From Candidatus Omnitrophota bacterium (GTDB taxonomy: Bacteria > Omnitrophota > Gorgyraeia > Tantalellales > Tantalellaceae), in assembly GCA_043812935.1 (NCBI GenBank), contig JBDRLO010000076.1, forward strand, positions 1-62,042: DNA of 62,042 nt. Reading direction: 5' to 3'. Below, piece by piece: positions 32,748 to 42,228 of the stretch. The notes beneath the pieces are model-generated. The model was given only the letters and a program-made list of their open reading frames with translations, did not search any database and was not told where the DNA came from. Position 1 is the first letter of the stretch. Each line of letters starts with the position of its first letter. A program made the translations under genes and the position numbers.

Positions 32748-33983
32748 TTATTTATCTTGTTCAGGAGTATAAACGCAGACAATGTTTTTACCTGTTTGTT
32801 TTGCGCGGTAGAGCGCTTGGTCGGCTTTGTTTATGAAATCGTTTTTTTCAATACTATCATTTGGAAAAAACGCAAGACCCAAGCTTATTGTCAATTTATA
32901 ATCTTTAGGGATGGTTTTATCTTTTTTAAAGGATTTTTCAGTTTCTTTCCTGAGCCTTTCTGCAGTTCTTCTCGCTCCGCTTTTATTGGATTTTGACATT
33001 ATTATACAGAATTCTTCACCGCCGTATCTGCATACAAAGTCAGTTCCGCGGGAATAACGGTTTAGTATATCCGCTACTTTTTTTATAGCATCGTCTCCCT
33101 GCCTATGTCCGAATTTGTCATTAAATCTTTTAAAATTATCGATATCAATCATTAAAAGAGCGACAGGGTTTTTGGTTTCTCTGGATTTTTTTAATTTTTT
33201 TTCAAGCATGGCGCTGAAATAACGCGTGTTCCAAAGCCCGGTTAACCAGTCTGTCCGGGAAAGATGCACGGTTTTTTCATATAATTGAGAATTTTCAATT
33301 GCAAGAGCCGCATGATTCGCGAACATATTTAATATTCGCATATTATCTTTTGTGATAGCTTTTTTAGAAAAAATATTATCAACAAGTATTACGCCGAATG
33401 TGCGGGTTTTAGTCTTAAGCGGAATAGTCACAAAAAGGTCCATCTTAAGCCATTTTTTTATTCGGTCATTAACCATGGATTTGGCTTCGTGTGTAGTAAT
33501 TTCAAACGGCATGCCTTCGAGTATTGTCAGCGCAAGTATTCCGGTATCTTCACGGAGCGGTATTCTGATGCCTTGTACAATTGAATTCAATTTTGATTCC
33601 GGATCGGTTTTAAACTTTTCATAAGCTTCTAACAAATTGTTTAGTTCTAGTTCTTGGTTATAAACATGCTTCCAGATTTTGTCCGCCTCTTCAGTCGAAT
33701 GGGGGCCGATTGCCATTTTGCCTTCCAGAGTTTGCTTTTTTTCATTTACAACAAAAAACATGGCTCGGTCAAAACCAAGGCCGGCATGTGATGTGAGAGC
33801 TGTAAGAATTGTATAAAGAACCTGATCCAATTTGAGCGATCGCATTATGCAGTTAGTTATTTCGGAAAGCATAATAAGTTCATTCTTAGTTTTAACAAAA
33901 AGTTTTTCAAGTTCACGTTTTGTTAAATCCGGTTTTATGAGTATTTTTTTAGTTTTAGATGTTTTCATAGCAAATTTTTCCAT
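32748..33983 (-). CDS. GAF + GGDEF diguanylate cyclase
   Basis: GAF (LGFDRAMFF...FANHAALAIEN); DWLTGLWN, DIDNFKRFNDKFGH, RGTD I-site plus GGEEF, ADQALYRAK. Confidence 0.93.
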   Translation of the reverse strand: MEKFAMKTSKTKKILIKPDLTKRELEKLFVKTKNELIMLSEITNCIMRSLKLDQVLYTILTALTSHAGLGFDRAMFFVVNEKKQTLEGKMAIGPHSTEEADKIWKHVYNQELELNNLLEAYEKFKTDPESKLNSIVQGIRIPLREDTGILALTILEGMPFEITTHEAKSMVNDRIKKWLKMDLFVTIPLKTKTRTFGVILVDNIFSKKAITKDNMRILNMFANHAALAIENSQLYEKTVHLSRTDWLTGLWNTRYFSAMLEKKLKKSRETKNPVALLMIDIDNFKRFNDKFGHRQGDDAIKKVADILNRYSRGTDFVCRYGGEEFCIIMSKSNKSGARRTAERLRKETEKSFKKDKTIPKDYKLTISLGLAFFPNDSIEKNDFINKADQALYRAKQTGKNIVCVYTPEQDK

Positions 33984-34342: not shown

Positions 34343-37300
34343 ATGAGATTAAAAAAAAATAATAATATTATTAAAATTATAGCATTAGGACTTAGCTTTT
34401 CATTGCTTTGGAATGGTGTAATGTGGGCTGATCCTAATGTTTTTGAAAAGGAAACTTTACAGCCTTTGACGCGTTTTACAGATTTTACTACGAATGAATT
34501 TATTTCCGGGATTGTAGGAAAGTATCTTAAGATATATTTTAGAGGTATAGAAAATGATTTTCGTAATTTAAATGTTCAGCATCTGCAAAGACTAATTAAC
34601 GAACGGCTAAAGCAAATAAAAGCTTTAAAAAATGTTCCTCCGGAAGTAAATAATAAGATCCCTGATAAAGTAAGAACTGATAAAAAGAATGCTTGTATAG
34701 TTGATCTAGGATCAGTCAAAATAAGATATTATAATCATCAAATACCTGGAGCTGAGGTTCCGGATCGTGATCCGGATAATCGTTTTTATAAAGCATATCC
34801 TGTTTTTCGGGGAGACTATCTTTCTAAACAATTCTTAGTTGAGGAACAAAACTTTGCGGCTTCTAATAAATTTCATCCAAATTCACCCGGTCCCGCGCTT
34901 TTTTTTGATTTTAAAACCGATACATGGCGGGCATTAAAAGACGTTCCTGAAGCAAGCCGTAAAATGTCAGAACATGATGTAATGAATATCGCGTGTAAAG
35001 AGTTAGTTTTTGATAGGAATAAAACGTCTCTTTCTGCGGGAAACCCTGTATATGATTATGTGTCAAAGGACAGCGGTTTTGAAGAGATTAAGCTGTATAT
35101 TCTTAATGACGATGAATTTAAACAAAATCTTACGGATAAAAAATCACAGTGTTTGGCCAAAGGATTAATAACGCATGCCGGGACGTACACGGATCCTGCC
35201 ACAGGTTTGTCCAGAGCGTTGAATCTTTTTATGCCGGAATCGGTTTATAATTATTTTACAGAATTATTGGAAAAAATGTCATCTATGAAATATGCGGGCG
35301 AGTTGCTTGCGTTCTGGAAAACACATGAATTGCGCCATTTAAAGGACAGAAAAGCTGATATTGATGGAAAATTTACAGAGTCAGAAAAAGATGCCGCGGA
35401 AATTATTCTTTGGATGAGTAAAACCTTATGGGCATTGAAAAAAAATAATTTACATGATGCTTTTGAATATGTGAATAAGATTGAAACGATAGAAAGTCAT
35501 GTTCTTTGTTTGTGTGAAATGCGAGGCCGGCTTCATGAGGCAAGCGGAAATTTGCAGGAAGCGTGTGACAATTATTTCACGGCATTAGCTATTATGAATT
35601 CGGATAATGCGAAAGTGCTGATAGGCCACACACTTGAAACAAAAACTATAGAAATGATTGAATCTTTGCAGCAAATTGTAGATAGAAATGTGAACAAATT
35701 TCCAATAAATAAAAAGAAAGCTGCGAATGCTATTGTGAATCCAAAGATCTCCCACAATCTATTTGTAGCGCGTATGGAAGCAGTGAGTACTTCCCCTCTT
35801 TTTTCTTTTGACGAGGACATGAAGCACAATAATCTTTGTATTATATATTTTGCGTGTGTTCCGATTATGTGCAGCTATATAGAGAATATTCTGCGGGAAA
35901 AAAACAAAATAACTTCATTTGCAAAAGAGATTGTAAGGGAATTATTGAAATTGATCGAAAAAGGAAAATTGGTAAACCCAATACTAAATGAAACTGAGAA
36001 TGATTATTTGGGGCGGGTGTATTATATTGCCGGAGAAGTATTCGCAGGACTTGGAAGTACTAATAAGGCTTTTGAATGCTTTGAACAGGCCTTGGATTAT
36101 GATGATACTGTTCCAGTATATTATGCCAGAAAAGCTGAGTTTTTGGTGGTTACGAAAAAAACAATGGAATCTCTTGCTGAGGCGCGAGAACTTTTATCGC
36201 AGGCTGAACAAAAATTCGGTTCTTTGGAAGTTTTCAGCAGTGCGTGGGTTTTTATAAGCGAAAAAGAAGTTTCAATAAAAAACGCCTTTGAAGAAGAGCA
36301 AGAAATGCATATGTTTTATGAGGAAATGTTAGAACTGTACAAAAATGGCAGATATAAGACCTGTCAGGAACGCATAGTTGAATACGAAAACGGAAAAAAT
36401 GGTTCTCCCAAAAAAAAGATTTCAGCAGAGCTAATGCGATTAAAAAGAGACGCGCATTCAGCGCTAAAATCAAGTCTAAACGCGCAAAAATGGATTAAAA
36501 TGGGGGATATGTCCCAAGCTGAATGGCATTTTAGGAGAGTTTTGCTGAAAAATCCTAATGATTCAAATGCCTGTAAAATAGTGAATATTTTTGAACGTGA
36601 AACCGAAATGCAAAAGCAACAAGTAATTACAGAACATTTGCTGCAGCAGAAACTGTCTGAAGCAAAAAAATATGTTTCAAGCGCCAAAGATAGAGAAGAA
36701 AGAGGGCTTATTGCAAAAGCAAGAAAAAGTTATCAAAGTGCTTTAGCTGAGCTTGCGCAAATTTCCTATAAAAACGAAGAAGCAGCACTTTTAAAAACAG
36801 AACTAGAAAAAGAATTAAAAGAGATAGAAAATCTGCCTGATAGAATTGAAAAAGTTCATGGGAACAATCATGATGAAGAGCCTAAAAAAAGACAGAAAAT
36901 TGTTACGAAGAAAAACGAAGAAGCCCCTAAGAATAAGGAAGAAAATGATGAAGATTACGGCAAACCGAAAATAAATAGAAAAATACGTCTTTCGGAAAAA
37001 GCCGCAAGGCTTTTGGGGAAGAAAAATGATATTGATCGTGAAAAAATTCTGAATATGATTAAAAACGTTGCGGCTGGCCGGCGGGATAATGTTAAAAAAA
37101 TTGAGCCACGCAAAAATCTTTTTAGAATAAGAGGTGACGAAAAAGACGTTGAGAGCAGGGTAGTTTTTACTTTTTGTGATGACAGCAGCATGTTAGTTCT
37201 TTTGATAAAGAAGAAGTCTCAAATAAAATACCCCAATATACTTAAACACTTTACGGAAGGGTTTGATTATGGGCCGATTATGGCATCTTCAGAGGAAATG

Positions 37301-40300
37301 GAAGACTTTGAAAAAAGGATAAAAGCATCAAAAAATGAAAATGTTCTTATGGCCATAGAGTTTCTGACAGGCGGAGTGCTTATTCTTTTTGTGTGTGAAA
37401 TTTTCCGGCAGATTTGGCATGGAAAGGTTTGTAAAAAATTGATTGGCCGCCATTCTAAATTGGCCGCGGCAGGAAATTTCATTTTCCGGGAGAAATCATA
37501 TTTCCCTTCAAATATAGAAAAGATTATTCATGGTTTGATTGTATTCGGATCAAAAGGTGTTGCTAAAGTTTCTGAATTTTTCAAGATAGTCATAGAATTA
37601 AGTAAAATAGCTATTCAAAAGAAAAAATATTTTGGTATTTTTCAGAAGCCTGTTCAACTCTGGTATGACAGGAGTGTTACAGCACAAATCCCAAAAGAAA
37701 AAATCATGAAAAATCTTGAATTAATAGTTGCAAATGCCGAAAATTTAGAGGAAGAAACCAAACAATTTGGGTTTGGCAGACAATTAAAAACTATTGATAT
37801 TGGATCGTATGTAAAGTCTTTATCTATTCTTCAAAACATGCTTAATAATACAAATATTTCTACTTATAGATTGAAAAATTATATCAGAGAAGCAGTAACT
37901 GAGATATTTTGTAAACAGGTAAATTTTTATCGAGAGGAGCCCTTGAAAGAAGATGTAGAATTATTAACTGAAACTTTTGATTATATTTTAAGTGAAGAAT
38001 CAAGGCACTTGGTTAAAGAGGATGCTCTTAAATTTGCTGTTGGAATTTTTATTGATATGCTGAAATCAAAAAAGATGCTTATGAATGGGAATCATAGAAT
38101 AATTAGCATGATTATGAATTTTATACTGCTAAAAAATGGTTTTCCTTGTTTTGTTTTGACATTGGATAATGTAGTCAAATACTATGCAATAAGTAAGTCA
38201 ATACAACGTGGAGATAGGAACTATAGCGATGATGAAATAACAGAATTTTTCAGAAAAGAAATAGAAAAAAACAGGGAAAAATTTAATTGGTTTAATTGGA
38301 TAAAAAAATGTTTAAAGATGCCGGGATTGAAGAATCCTGTTTTTTTGAAAGAAAATAAAGGTTCTTTTGTTGTAACGCCGAACGAAAATAAGGATTCCGA
38401 TCTTTCTGTGCCTTTAAAAGAGATAAAAACTCCGGCAGATATAGTGACAATGAAAGCCCCGGCTGCATCGCCCATAGAACTTGATGCGAGAGTGGATTTA
38501 AAATATATAACCGGTTTAATCTCGCAAGCTCGGGAAAGGACTGACGAGGCAAACATTTCGGAAGCAGTTGGTTATATCAATGTACATGCCCCGCCGTTTA
38601 ATGGTTCCAGGATTAATCCCGCAAATATTAAACTTTTTTCAATAGACTTGGGCAAAAAACTTGGTATTCCAAGGTTTAAAATGGCGGAAAGCGCGCAGGA
38701 TCTTATTTATGTGTTTCCAATTTATGACAGCGAAAAAAACATACTCAAGCTTTATGCGACTAAACAATATTTTGAATCACAGTTGAAGAATAATGCACTG
38801 GCATTGGCTGAAGCCATAGATCACGAATACACTGAAAAGGTTTTAGGGTATTCACACCGCGTGGCTTGTTCACGATCATACTTTTTCGCTACAGAAAAAA
38901 ACCAATTAACGCCTTTTCACAATTTTTATATTAATCAGATTATTTCAGAAGGCAATTTTTCTTTAGCAAAATTTATTGTTCCAGAACGGCACGCTTCTAA
39001 AGATGTTATTGAGGCTTTTGAGAACAATAAAACATTAATCGGCAAAATAGAAAATTATGATAAGCGTTTCTTTGATTATTTGTGTGCTGTTGTTCGTTTA
39101 AGGGATTTTAGTAAGTTCTTAATACGACAAATAGATAAAAATATAGCAAAACAGAATTATGCTGCATTTAAGGATTCAGATACAATTTTATTGGATGGAG
39201 TTGAGTCCGGGATGAGTCCTTTGACTATGCCGGATGAAACTGAACTTCGTGAAAAGCTTTTTGATGTTATTTCTAAAGAAAGCACAGGCCAAGGCAAGAT
39301 ATTATCCCTGGGAATAGGAAGAGGTCTTTTTGAGGCCCCCTTTGTAGGGGCGGGATATGATATGACAGGAATGGATTTTTGCCCGGAGGTCTTATCTTGC
39401 GCAAAAAAAAGAGGAATCAAAACAATAGAAGCTGATGTGGATGACCAGACTGTTTGGGAAAACTTGCACAAAAACCATGCCAAATTTGATACTGTGATTA
39501 TTCCTGAATCAATTGGGTATTATGATGAAGACAAGTTGTTTGAGAATATAAAAACTATTTTAAAACCTGGCGGGGATTTATATATTCTTGTTAGCGCAGA
39601 GTTGGCAGGGCTTTCTTTTGGTTATAAAGGGTTTAACTATAACCAAATTAAGGAAAAACTTAAGAGAAGCGGGTTTTTATTTAACAAAAAAACACAATGC
39701 AGGCATTACAACGGGAAGAAAACGACTATATGTTTAGTTAAGGCATCGCTTCCCGTTGAAAACAAGAATACAGCAGTTGAAGCTATTAAAAAACAGTATA
39801 GTGTGTTTGACGGGTCTGAAAGTCTTTTTGGGGGTATAAGCGGACATATTAGTACGGTAGCATCTCCTGAAGCATCAGAGCTTCGCAAAAAACTTTCGCA
39901 AGTTATTCTAAAACAAACTGGTCCATCTAGCAAAATATTGTCTCTTGCAGTGGGAAACGGTATATTTGAAGAAAATTTTGTTAGGGCAGGCTGCACAGTT
40001 ACCGGAGTTGACTGTACTCCCGAGGTTTTAGAACTGGCTAAACAAAGAGGTATAAATACGATAGAAGCGGATGTGAATAATTCAAATTTGTGGCAAGAAC
40101 TTGAGAAAAAAGAGAAATTTGATGCGGTAATTATTTCTGAAACAATAGGTTATTTCAATGAAGATGTGCTTTTTGAAAGGATAAAAAAAGTATTAAATCC
40201 AGGAGGGCGTATATATATTTTAACAACGCGAAATTCTGAAGAGAGGATGCCGGATTATAAAAGGTTTAATTCTAGGCGGATAAGGGCAAAACTTAGAAAA

Positions 40301-41146
40301 AGTGGATTTATTTGTTCGGAATATTTCGAAGGAAAATATTATCGCGATAATTTTCTAAAAGTACGTTTAATGACAACAAGATTACCTATTCAAAGAAAGA
40401 GAACTGAAAATCAACGAAATCAAACAAAAACGAAAAACATGAAAACTCCTAAAATTTTATGGGATGGTGAAAGAATTATCCGAAACGTTGAAGAAATTGT
40501 ACCTCGTCTTGTTCAAGGGATGATAGATACGGCTGAAGAGGCTTTCCAGAAGAAAGAAAAAGTTATTTTATATCTTGACGAAGCGTTTTCACAAAACAAT
40601 GAAGAAGAAGTTTCAGGTGCAATAGAAGACGTAATTAATTTACTAACAAATATTAAAAACAACAATAAAAGCCTTTTTGAATTTTTGAACGGTAAACTGG
40701 AAGTGCGTTGCGGGACAAAAGAAGAATTTAAGTCTAAAAAAGGAAAGGTTAAATCGGAAAATATTATAGTTGTTACTACTAAAGCCAATTATGAAGCAGG
40801 TTATTTTTCAACTATTGACGGGAATGGTATTATCGCCGCTATTGATGACAAAGATTTGCCCCAAAAGGCATATTGTCCTCTGGTTGAAACTGTTTTTTTC
40901 GCGATTGGTAAGTATCTCATTGGTAAGGATCTCAACTGGAACGAAGAAAAACTTTGCGAATGGTATGAAAAAATTCCGAATGTAACGCTTATAAAAGACC
41001 TTTCAAAAGCGGAGTATGCCGATTTATTTAATGGTAACGCGAAAAGCATAATTGTAAGATTAATACCAAATGCCGTTGAATTCAAAACAGATGATAAACA
41101 TGCTGAAATAATAAGGCATGTAAGGGATGTTCTGAGTAAGGCATAG
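34343..41146 (+). CDS. Giant secreted multidomain protein: HExxH zincin-like, TPRs, RelE/ParE-like, Fic-like, two class I SAM methyltransferases, shared C-terminal domain
   Basis: ATG at 34343 gives a signal peptide ending VMWA (the ORF track starts at TTG 34325); THELRH; TPR helices; IRLSEKA...LFRIR...RVVFTF; NGNHR; ILSLGIGRG and ILSLAVGNG; ends IPNAVEFKTDDKHAEIIRHVRDVLSKA. Confidence 0.82.
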   Translation: MRLKKNNNIIKIIALGLSFSLLWNGVMWADPNVFEKETLQPLTRFTDFTTNEFISGIVGKYLKIYFRGIENDFRNLNVQHLQRLINERLKQIKALKNVPPEVNNKIPDKVRTDKKNACIVDLGSVKIRYYNHQIPGAEVPDRDPDNRFYKAYPVFRGDYLSKQFLVEEQNFAASNKFHPNSPGPALFFDFKTDTWRALKDVPEASRKMSEHDVMNIACKELVFDRNKTSLSAGNPVYDYVSKDSGFEEIKLYILNDDEFKQNLTDKKSQCLAKGLITHAGTYTDPATGLSRALNLFMPESVYNYFTELLEKMSSMKYAGELLAFWKTHELRHLKDRKADIDGKFTESEKDAAEIILWMSKTLWALKKNNLHDAFEYVNKIETIESHVLCLCEMRGRLHEASGNLQEACDNYFTALAIMNSDNAKVLIGHTLETKTIEMIESLQQIVDRNVNKFPINKKKAANAIVNPKISHNLFVARMEAVSTSPLFSFDEDMKHNNLCIIYFACVPIMCSYIENILREKNKITSFAKEIVRELLKLIEKGKLVNPILNETENDYLGRVYYIAGEVFAGLGSTNKAFECFEQALDYDDTVPVYYARKAEFLVVTKKTMESLAEARELLSQAEQKFGSLEVFSSAWVFISEKEVSIKNAFEEEQEMHMFYEEMLELYKNGRYKTCQERIVEYENGKNGSPKKKISAELMRLKRDAHSALKSSLNAQKWIKMGDMSQAEWHFRRVLLKNPNDSNACKIVNIFERETEMQKQQVITEHLLQQKLSEAKKYVSSAKDREERGLIAKARKSYQSALAELAQISYKNEEAALLKTELEKELKEIENLPDRIEKVHGNNHDEEPKKRQKIVTKKNEEAPKNKEENDEDYGKPKINRKIRLSEKAARLLGKKNDIDREKILNMIKNVAAGRRDNVKKIEPRKNLFRIRGDEKDVESRVVFTFCDDSSMLVLLIKKKSQIKYPNILKHFTEGFDYGPIMASSEEMEDFEKRIKASKNENVLMAIEFLTGGVLILFVCEIFRQIWHGKVCKKLIGRHSKLAAAGNFIFREKSYFPSNIEKIIHGLIVFGSKGVAKVSEFFKIVIELSKIAIQKKKYFGIFQKPVQLWYDRSVTAQIPKEKIMKNLELIVANAENLEEETKQFGFGRQLKTIDIGSYVKSLSILQNMLNNTNISTYRLKNYIREAVTEIFCKQVNFYREEPLKEDVELLTETFDYILSEESRHLVKEDALKFAVGIFIDMLKSKKMLMNGNHRIISMIMNFILLKNGFPCFVLTLDNVVKYYAISKSIQRGDRNYSDDEITEFFRKEIEKNREKFNWFNWIKKCLKMPGLKNPVFLKENKGSFVVTPNENKDSDLSVPLKEIKTPADIVTMKAPAASPIELDARVDLKYITGLISQARERTDEANISEAVGYINVHAPPFNGSRINPANIKLFSIDLGKKLGIPRFKMAESAQDLIYVFPIYDSEKNILKLYATKQYFESQLKNNALALAEAIDHEYTEKVLGYSHRVACSRSYFFATEKNQLTPFHNFYINQIISEGNFSLAKFIVPERHASKDVIEAFENNKTLIGKIENYDKRFFDYLCAVVRLRDFSKFLIRQIDKNIAKQNYAAFKDSDTILLDGVESGMSPLTMPDETELREKLFDVISKESTGQGKILSLGIGRGLFEAPFVGAGYDMTGMDFCPEVLSCAKKRGIKTIEADVDDQTVWENLHKNHAKFDTVIIPESIGYYDEDKLFENIKTILKPGGDLYILVSAELAGLSFGYKGFNYNQIKEKLKRSGFLFNKKTQCRHYNGKKTTICLVKASLPVENKNTAVEAIKKQYSVFDGSESLFGGISGHISTVASPEASELRKKLSQVILKQTGPSSKILSLAVGNGIFEENFVRAGCTVTGVDCTPEVLELAKQRGINTIEADVNNSNLWQELEKKEKFDAVIISETIGYFNEDVLFERIKKVLNPGGRIYILTTRNSEERMPDYKRFNSRRIRAKLRKSGFICSEYFEGKYYRDNFLKVRLMTTRLPIQRKRTENQRNQTKTKNMKTPKILWDGERIIRNVEEIVPRLVQGMIDTAEEAFQKKEKVILYLDEAFSQNNEEEVSGAIEDVINLLTNIKNNNKSLFEFLNGKLEVRCGTKEEFKSKKGKVKSENIIVVTTKANYEAGYFSTIDGNGIIAAIDDKDLPQKAYCPLVETVFFAIGKYLIGKDLNWNEEKLCEWYEKIPNVTLIKDLSKAEYADLFNGNAKSIIVRLIPNAVEFKTDDKHAEIIRHVRDVLSKA

Positions 41147-41620
41147 TTACGCGTAACGCGTAGCACGTTACACGGAACATGTAGCACGTTACACGGAACA
41201 TGCAACACGGAACACCTCACACGAAACACGCTACACGAAACACGCCACACGAAACACGCTACACGAAACACGCTACACGAAACACGCTACACGAAACACG
41301 CTACACGGAACACGGAACACGCAACACGGAACACGAAACACGCAACACGGAACATGCAACACGTAACACGTAACACGGAACACGCAACACGGAACACGCA
41401 ACACGGAACACGCTACACGAAACACGCTACACGAAACACGCTACACGAAACACGAAACACGCTACACGAAACACGCTACACGGAACACGCAACACGAAAC
41501 ACGCAACACGGAACACGTAACACGGAACATGCAACACGTAACACGTAACACGGAACACGCAACACGTAACATTTTACACGTAATATGTTACACGCAATAT
41601 GTTACACGATTCACGTTGAT
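41147..41620 (+). repeat. Long ACACGNW heptamer tandem array (about 60 units)
   Basis: Units acacgaa, acacgct, acacgga, acacgca, acacgta, acatgca in mixed order starting right after the stop codon. Confidence 0.95.
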
Positions 41621-42188: not shown

Positions 42189-42228
42189 CCAGTTTTCGTG
42201 AAACGTGTAGCGTGTGGCGTGTAACGCA
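42168..42228. repeat. CCGGTTAG octamers (supplying the cinA stop) followed by reverse heptamers
   Basis: ggttag-ccggttag-ccggttag-ccagtt, then cgtgaaa-cgtgtag-cgtgtgg-cgtgtaa. Confidence 0.8.

Follow-up and report, generated by a model that had tools for sequence, protein, structure and literature searches.

The DNA analysed here, a stretch of 62,042 nucleotides from a Candidatus Omnitrophota bacterium (GenBank assembly GCA_043812935.1, contig JBDRLO010000076.1; hereafter the window), contains at positions 34343-41146 of the forward strand a single uninterrupted open reading frame (ORF) of 2,267 codons. By sequence comparison, its product is a member of a lineage-restricted protein family in which constant ends, namely a Sec-type signal peptide followed by an N-terminal module (N-module) of ~145 residues and, at the other extremity, a C-terminal domain (CTD) of ~230 residues, bracket a middle that is freely exchanged. 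The constant cargo at this locus consists of one or two class I methyltransferases dependent on S-adenosylmethionine (SAM), and the block that contains relatives of toxin folds is accessory. We regard this identification of the protein as probable. Its overall reading as a modular carrier exported by the Sec route is one that we favour with somewhat less assurance, and the mechanism proposed below is tentative.

The start codon (ATG at 34343) gives an N-terminus, MRLKKNNN, that agrees with the start of the orthologue from the same genus (MKLTKNN). Then come a hydrophobic core (Kyte-Doolittle 1.75) and VMWA|DP. Among the homologues whose start is intact, about 30 of 30 have this arrangement in front of the N-module, with a c-region consensus of W-x-G-V-V-W-A|(N/D)-P-D (also given as W-Q-G-V-V-W-A|(N/D)-P-D); the proposal of a secreted protein made in an earlier note on this DNA is thus borne out at the level of the signal. 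By six-frame searches, 28 of the 53 other genomes covered within the order have the N-module, N-terminal on ORFs with differing middles, and 29 of 36 have the CTD; the two co-occur in the order on ORFs that range from 800 to >6,000 aa. Elsewhere in the class, the other families are almost devoid of matches to the N-module and the CTD (0/24 and 1/24), and likewise of matches to the HExxH domain described below. An exhaustive profile search with the CTD among 1.84 billion representative proteins recovered 282 clusters at E<=1e-3, and in nearly all full-length matches (500-6,377 aa) the match stops at the last residues of the protein. Taken over 31 CTD-bearing proteins, the consensus opens with this signal peptide and N-module. 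The cargo of these proteins comprises ordinary enzymes (PGK, enolase, iPGM, carbamoyltransferase, HD and protein kinase), which points to a general carrier architecture rather than to a toxin family, together with TPR, methyltransferases, GNAT, CofD and more. The protein of the window shows the organization that defines the family: Sec signal and N-module first, CTD at the extreme C-terminus, and middles that are unrelated from one member to the next.

The folds of the two ends were also searched for. The AlphaFold2 (AF2) model of the N-module has a pLDDT of ~90, and structure searches with this model gave no convincing fold match. In AlphaFold DB, Foldseek matched the N-module (E 1.7e-6, 30% identity) to A0A0F0CRY6, a protein of 850 aa annotated as HD domain-containing, so that this head occurs with yet another cargo in a genome held by UniProt. 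No Pfam family was found for any of 14 CTDs and there was no match among PDB sequences; single-sequence patterns of the CTD found nothing in a search of genome contigs, and neither the CTD nor the HExxH domain had a usable match in the ESM Atlas feature search.

Two side observations concern the same family. Enzymes of cytoplasmic type (glycolytic and others) sit behind a Sec signal peptide in proteins with this head and tail. In the window itself, four large ORFs (ending at 2271, 13175, 20657 and 41146) resemble one another to the eye over their last ~28 residues, each tail running from a Pro-containing hydrophobic strand through an acidic patch to an amphipathic helix that ends in A or L (...LPPVIVYDTTELKKMNKQMLNLLKSA vs ...LIPNAVEFKTDDKHAEIIRHVRDVLSKA). 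Two of the three other ORFs also carry signal peptides. The CTD profile gave no significant match to the tails of these three ORFs (E 0.45, 0.35 and 0.021), and any element common to the four would therefore be the short tail and not the whole 230-residue CTD.

Comparison of orthologous loci, suggested in the earlier note as a check for domain swapping, revealed that the architecture of the protein varies strongly. The gene stands at a conserved chromosomal site, as X in the order SMC - X - CinA - RecA - RecX - AlaS. A word search with the whole protein returned only one homologue, P0002 (1,448 aa, from JGI metagenomes); the other relatives emerged only in the six-frame genome searches, and all the relatives compared derive from metagenome-assembled genomes (MAGs). 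P0002, which lies in the same SMC-to-AlaS context, comprises the N-module, the HExxH domain, TPR, a ParE-like module, one methyltransferase and the CTD, and lacks residues ~1005-1802 of the window protein. The syntenic orthologue of the same genus (genome G001; order GGDEF, X, CinA, LigT, RecA) is 847 aa long: residue ~172 is fused straight to residue ~1590, the junction falling on a shared 'DYL'; identity is 65% on the N-terminal side of this point and 79% on the C-terminal side. The whole HExxH-TPR-ParE-helix-Fic-HExxE block (~1,415 residues) is therefore missing there. This clean in-frame indel between congeneric species marks the block as accessory cargo, dispensable in the congener. The HExxH domain was found in 17 of 53 genomes of the order. 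In other genera, a unit made of HExxH, TPR and ParE-like parts, often followed by HExxE, is repeated two to three times per ORF, the ORFs being 3,550 (G005:C29), 6,706 (G008:C6) and 6,838 aa (G072:C2) long.

The cargo kept at the locus is recognizable by direct Pfam comparison: Methyltransf_25 is matched in two stretches (81.5 bits; cut-off 27) whose motif I reads LSLGIGRG and LSLAVGNG. By the Pfam gathering score and by motif I (GxGxG), both stretches (MT1 and MT2) belong to the class I SAM methyltransferases. They are 43% identical to each other and thus form a tandem duplication, and MT1 is 89% identical to its counterpart in the G001 orthologue. Among solved structures, UbiG-type O-methyltransferases come closest (E 5.5e-7).

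The accessory block contains two regions that the earlier note had assigned to RelE/ParE and Fic, and both assignments correspond to real homologies and not to chance motifs, as judged from family profiles and hhalign. The ParE-like sequence of the window matches Pfam Gp49 below the cut-off (E 0.002, 18.6 bits; cut-off 23.9). Six of the nine orthologous ParE-like modules match ParE_toxin (PF05016; best E 3.1e-5), two embedded copies exceed the curated cut-off of the Pfam model among the 54 genomes of the order, and the profile of the embedded modules aligns by hhalign with that of 16 free-standing ParE toxins of the order at 95.7% (E 1e-8). The module has the beta1-alpha-alpha-beta-beta-beta sequence pattern of the ParE/RelE/Gp49 (HigB) superfamily (PF05016, PF05973). 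By contrast with the members of this superfamily, it is fused within a 2,267-aa protein predicted to be exported, has no partner antitoxin gene, and belongs to a set of embedded modules that add a conserved extension of ~35 residues (FPExFDYGxIL..AVxIEDF) and have not kept the R, Y and H that are near-invariant in the free toxins. Opposite the near-invariant His of the order's free-standing ParE toxins, the embedded modules have a Lys in the alignment; the only invariant residue among the nine modules is one Leu, and no polar residue is conserved. Homology to the toxin fold is thus found, and the functional residues and the cognate antitoxin are not. We take the ParE-like part to be a genuine relative of the toxin fold at the family level, apparently devoid of conserved catalytic residues.

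Free-standing ParE toxins above the Pfam cut-off occur in 22 of the 54 genomes of the order. One of them, a 91-aa protein (39.4 bits, above the Pfam cut-off; L179, G000:C60, positions 355-609), is encoded by the window's own genome. It is possible that the free-standing toxins of the order were the source of the embedded modules.

The Fic-like region shares with Fic/Doc proteins (FICD/HYPE, IbpA; PF02661) the core around the active-site loop and the next helix (NGNxR...MNFILLKNGFP...YY). Its motif, K1244-MLMNGNHRII-S1255 (38072-38107, KMLMNGNHRIIS), differs from the consensus HxFx(D/E)GNGRxxR by four residues: His is replaced by Lys, Asp/Glu by Asn, Gly by His and Arg by Ser. The loss of the catalytic His, already pointed out in the earlier note, is therefore accompanied by the change of three more consensus residues; the Fic core is recognizable and the catalytic motif is not. 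Taken alone, the sequence lies below the Pfam threshold, with no Pfam match, and gives E ~0.05 against FICD. A profile made from the window sequence and three copies embedded in giant proteins, with the canonical Fic protein excluded, matches FICD (E 5e-13), the Fic-domain protein 3cuc (8e-8) and IbpA (3e-4); the region is therefore homologous to Fic. Three of five related modules match PF02661. These relatives were found in four genomes of the family, one being free-standing and three embedded in long ORFs, and the module sits at a different position in G002:C25. In the embedded copies, which carry QPLIDGNKR, LLFADGTQR and QAFFNGNHR (QPLIDGNKRTAS, LLFADGTQRTAV and QAFFNGNHRMAD), the catalytic His is lost too. 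Because this His and three consensus residues are gone, we read the region as a pseudo-Fic, that is, to judge from the alignments, a true Fic homologue by descent whose catalytic motif has been lost. The free-standing relative is a 314-aa Fic protein (L035, G024:C103, 1225-1692) with a canonical motif (HPFIDGNGRTAR), and it links the degenerate embedded modules to Fic proteins of the active type. PHROGs gave one family of unknown function, which matches the Fic-like part.

The two other modules of the block that are conserved at the residue level are marked by HELRH (35324-35338; H328-E-L-R-H332), invariant in 23 of 24 aligned copies, and by HEYTE (38822-38836). THAGT (H278), N294, P298, W325 and E329 are also invariant in the HExxH domain, and H1494, E1495, E1498, H1505 and A1508 are invariant in 24 sequences of the HExxE module. 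AF2 models calculated with alignments from relatives have a pLDDT of 86.6 for residues 30-360 and of 88.9 (pTM 0.82) for the HExxE module. The exhaustive VIA search with residues 232-360 ranked abylysin first (Z 6.0), before selecase (5.5), jannalysin (5.4), HtpX (5.0) and BlaR1 (4.9), which complete the top five. With the HExxE module, zincins take eight of the first nine VIA places, selecase and Ste24 (Z 5.3) leading; BlaR1, abylysin, ZMPSTE24, jannalysin, an M35 peptidase and 3e11 are the others ('predicted zincin-like metalloprotease' being among the titles). AlphaFold DB matches of the HExxE module, all weak, are to M48, DUF4157, SprT, IrrE and M56, and ESM Atlas matches of the HExxH domain are to met-zincin, M10 and YbeY. 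Type III effector zincins (M85 NleC-like, M91, PipA/GogA/GtgA) are among the neighbours of the HExxE module in the ESM feature search, as sub-threshold leads with scores of 0.85-0.89. Foldseek gave no match to the PDB at E<=0.001 for either model, the two alignments had no Pfam match and nothing meaningful in profile searches of PDB sequences, and BLAST and hhalign detected no sequence relationship between the two modules; that they share a fold is suggested by the models.

The consistent ranking of zincins and the location of the motifs on predicted helical segments make a minigluzincin-like zincin fold the best reading of both modules, although each score is weak. In the HExxH domain, the motif lies on what would be the active-site helix of a zincin. 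Minigluzincins (abylysin 4jiu, jannalysin 4jix, selecase 4qhf) and M48/M56 peptidases (Ste24, HtpX, BlaR1) are the best structural matches of both modules: ~90-110 residues align, which covers a whole minimal protease, and HExxH falls in the matching helix region. The window modules differ from them in that Z is only 5-6, identity is 14-20% and there is no match at the sequence level; moreover, the second module has HExxE...H instead of HExxH, there are additional conserved motifs (THAGT and FH), and the modules would be embedded in a giant exported protein. The helical region that follows the HExxH domain is weakly TPR (TPR_14 25.0 bits vs a cut-off of 23.5), with 27-28% identity in the cassette copies of relatives.

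In the mechanism that we tentatively propose, the signal peptide would be cleaved and the head and tail would be handled by an export or docking route specific to the family. The ParE-fold and pseudo-Fic modules would be non-catalytic binding or scaffold units, any catalysis coming from the HExxH zincin, possibly from the HExxE site, and from the methyltransferases. The cargo would act beyond the cytoplasm of the producer, the most plausible target being a host or prey cell that supplies SAM. Full export fits with a signal peptide found throughout the family and with orthologues devoid of the hydrophobic helix. Reaching another cell is conceivable in view of the host-dependent or predatory lifestyle attributed to Omnitrophota (PMC10066038; bioRxiv 10.1101/2023.11.21.568195).

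Several points weigh against this proposal. We know of no cofactor supply for SAM-dependent methyltransferases outside the cytoplasm, which makes full export hard to square with activity unless another cell is reached. The hydrophobic helix (residues 1002-1027) and its positive C-terminal flank would put the C-terminal half of the protein, and with it the methyltransferases, into the cytoplasm of the producer. No machinery for secretion or docking was identified, and the N-module and CTD are without a fold assignment. The structural scores towards zincins are weak (Z 5-6, TM <0.5, Foldseek E >0.05), and HExxE is not a canonical zincin motif. Finally, the ParE-like sequence of the window, taken alone, gave no significant match to the profile of the free toxins, so that the ParE/RelE assignment holds at the family level; and as ParE toxins need no RNase-type residues, the missing conservation is no proof that the module is inactive.

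The topological objection can be turned into an explanation of its own. The protein would then be a bitopic envelope protein, in which the N-terminal ~1,000 residues (N-module, HExxH zincin, TPR and ParE-like parts) are periplasmic, the helix stops transfer, and the Fic-like, HExxE, methyltransferase and CTD parts are cytoplasmic, a periplasmic protease or binding unit being coupled in this way to cytoplasmic enzymes. The hydrophobic segment is indeed followed by five K/R/H (HGKVCKKLIGRHSK), which fits the positive-inside rule, long Omnitrophota proteins are commonly predicted to combine a signal peptide with transmembrane helices (bioRxiv 10.64898/2026.06.07.730766), and the problem of SAM supply would be solved for the window protein. 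However, the helix is specific to the window genome: P0002, the G001 orthologue and the Fic-bearing homologue of G002 have the signal peptide, a methyltransferase or Fic-like part and, in P0002 and G001, the CTD, and lack the helix, so that close relatives would differ in the side of the membrane on which the conserved methyltransferases and CTD lie. The helix also holds two Glu and a Gly-Gly pair. We consider this topology unlikely. Another possibility is that of a self-processing polyprotein, in which the zincin-like modules would cut the exported chain at module boundaries and free the methyltransferases and ParE-like units, a role analogous to that of the MARTX CPD. The zincin-like modules do bracket other modules and recur once per cassette in the giant ORFs, no residues in the cassette are more strictly conserved than their HExxH and HExxE motifs, and minigluzincins (abylysin, jannalysin) were crystallised as zymogens, going by PDB titles. 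Yet no cleavage-site motif was identified in the protein, the fold similarity is weak, and P0002 and G001 lack HExxE (G001 lacks both zincins) while retaining methyltransferases and CTD, which leaves self-processing improbable in our view.

The earlier note had gone further and proposed a MARTX-like multi-effector cassette. As a genuine multi-effector toxin, the protein would act in a target cell, where the ParE/RelE-like part would poison gyrase or translation, the Fic-like part would modify a host protein, and the zincins and methyltransferases would be further effectors. What stands of this proposal is the export signal, the modular construction and the real homology to the ParE/RelE and Fic folds; the neighbourhood of the HExxE module to type III effector zincins, sub-threshold only, and the described lifestyle of Omnitrophota are also in its favour. 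What is not supported is the effector function: the catalytic residues are lost or not shown, those of Fic being lost in the embedded copies of relatives as well, the ParE-like modules have no conserved polar residue, and no immunity or antitoxin gene is adjacent. Moreover, the block is absent from the congeneric orthologue, and the sister proteins carry housekeeping-type enzymes. PADLOC gave zero matches. The comparison with MARTX itself fails: Pfam/NCBIfam searches of the whole protein and of its pieces at E<=1-10 found neither RTX or glycine-rich repeats nor a CPD (Peptidase_C80), and the export signal is N-terminal and of the Sec type, where a type I signal would be C-terminal. We therefore think it very doubtful that the protein is a multi-effector toxin. 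A further reading, to which we give little credence, is that HExxH-TPR-ParE(-HExxE) is a domesticated toxin-protease module, used in tandem within exported Omnitrophota proteins and delivered to a host or prey cell. There, the flanking minimal zincins would set free or activate the cargo of ParE-fold units and enzymes. If true, it would define a new Sec-dependent delivery system for effector polyproteins, recognizable by the N-module and the CTD, with SAM methyltransferases working only in a foreign cytoplasm.

The exported carrier that we favour has partial counterparts among known systems. MARTX proteins are large secreted toxins with RTX repeats, a CPD and type I secretion, whose array of exchangeable internal modules differs between strains. 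The window protein resembles them by its exchangeable internal modules and by a protease module that could in principle process the chain; unlike them, it has a Sec signal instead of type I secretion, degenerate 'effectors', and no rtx transporter genes among its neighbours (SMC, GGDEF, CinA, LigT, RecA). Polymorphic toxins and cargo of the type IX secretion system (T9SS) likewise have constant, trafficking-type ends around variable cargo, as does the present family with one head and one tail reused throughout. In the present family, by contrast, the variable part is central and not C-terminal, no immunity gene follows, and the cargo consists mostly of ordinary enzymes. The C-terminus of the window protein is constant, and the repeat array lies downstream of it, followed by CinA. 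As far as the strand-helix pattern read from its sequence can tell, the CTD does not look like a beta-sandwich of the T9SS type. As analogies, MARTX, polymorphic toxins and T9SS cargo are useful, the defining features of each being absent here. The closest published frame is the literature on long and giant Omnitrophota proteins ('Archaeovorins' and multi-enzyme clusters; bioRxiv 10.1101/2023.11.21.568195 and 10.64898/2026.06.07.730766), which come from the same phylum and have a signal peptide and/or transmembrane topology, variable architectures, and strings of methyltransferase, TPR, peptidase and other cytoplasm-type domains. At 2,267 aa, the window protein is below the 'giant' range. The passages of those papers found by keyword mention neither the N-module/CTD bracket nor the HExxH-TPR-ParE(-HExxE) cassette, nor embedded ParE and Fic folds.

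Two classic toxin-antitoxin folds (ParE/RelE and Fic) have been recruited, apparently without their catalytic residues, into the long proteins of Omnitrophota, next to two minimal zincin-like domain families that have no Pfam or PDB sequence match. Omnitrophota are abundant, ultra-small and probably host-dependent, and nothing about them is more conspicuous, or less understood, than their long modular proteins. The ~1,415-residue indel constitutes a natural knockout, and the combination of a Sec signal with SAM enzymes in a protein of 2.3 kaa offers a manageable case for asking where bracket proteins go (periplasm, surface or another cell). Motif-level toxin calls in such mosaics are not to be taken as toxicity.

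The positions of the parts of the protein are listed in the table. The signal peptide, HExxH motif, TPR-like helices, RelE/ParE-like stretch, hydrophobic helix, Fic-like motif, HE-xx-E module, two class I methyltransferases and CTD noticed earlier were all recovered where they had been placed.

Table. Features of the 2,267-residue protein, with window positions, strand and basis of each assignment
Feature	Position	Strand	Basis
Signal peptide, Sec-type (residues 1-29)	34343..34429	+	K/R-rich n-region, hydrophobic core, predicted cleavage VMWA|DP
N-module, constant head (residues 30-175)	34430..34867	+	TLQPxTxFT, IENDxRNxN, IDLG..IRYxN, GxYLxxQ
HExxH domain (residues 176-360)	34868..35422	+	Alignments, AF2 model m3c0109ba1b9c
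Helical/TPR and coiled-coil region (residues 361-870)	35423..36952	+	Weak TPR_14, TPR_2, TPR_9
ParE/RelE-superfamily module and conserved C-terminal extension (residues 871-1000)	36953..37342	+	Family profiles
Hydrophobic helix, possible transmembrane/stop-transfer (residues 1002-1027)	37346..37423	+	Kyte-Doolittle 2.13
Degenerate Fic domain (residues 1100-1330)	37640..38332	+	Family profile vs FICD; motif at 38072-38107
HExxE module (residues 1390-1620)	38510..39202	+	24-sequence alignment, AF2 model m6ada5c903bf3
Class I SAM methyltransferase 1 (MT1, residues ~1621-1800)	39203..39742	+	Methyltransf_25, _11, _23 above cut-offs
Class I SAM methyltransferase 2 (MT2, residues ~1830-2010)	39830..40372	+	Pfam E 7e-23
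CTD, constant tail (residues 2030-2267, ending ...RDVLSKA), and stop	40430..41146	+	Alignment, exhaustive profile search

The host genome (1.39 Mb, 88.7% complete) belongs to Omnitrophota: its nearest RecA is that of a Candidatus Omnitrophota MAG (70% identity), and the named relatives of the protein all come from Candidatus Omnitrophota. Upstream of the gene lies a divergent GAF-GGDEF gene (32748-33983, - strand), with SMC further upstream, and the downstream order is CinA-LigT-RecA-RecX-AlaS. As the earlier note had stated, no small antitoxin-like or immunity ORF is adjacent to the gene in the ORF list and neighbourhood of the window. Nearly all the large ORFs of the window (1-62042) are on the + strand, the GGDEF gene being among the few on the - strand, and the GC skew is positive throughout (0.05-0.30).

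The repeat array that had been noticed after the stop consists of ~60 ACACGNN heptamers (41150-41610) and begins 4 bases past the stop codon; its three-unit pattern is matched 43 times, vs 0 in shuffled sequences, and it contains sub-runs of a 14-mer (ACACGAAACACGCT). One short copy lies between CinA and LigT (42204-42222, - strand). The orthologous loci, both those of P0002 (L002-L006) and that of the same-genus genome (L237), lack the array. At the latter locus, an additional ORF of 149 aa (G001:C37, 6928-7377, - strand) lies between the orthologue and CinA, at the place where the window has the heptamers; it has weak nucleotidyltransferase matches (DUF6036, aminoglycoside adenylyltransferase-like).

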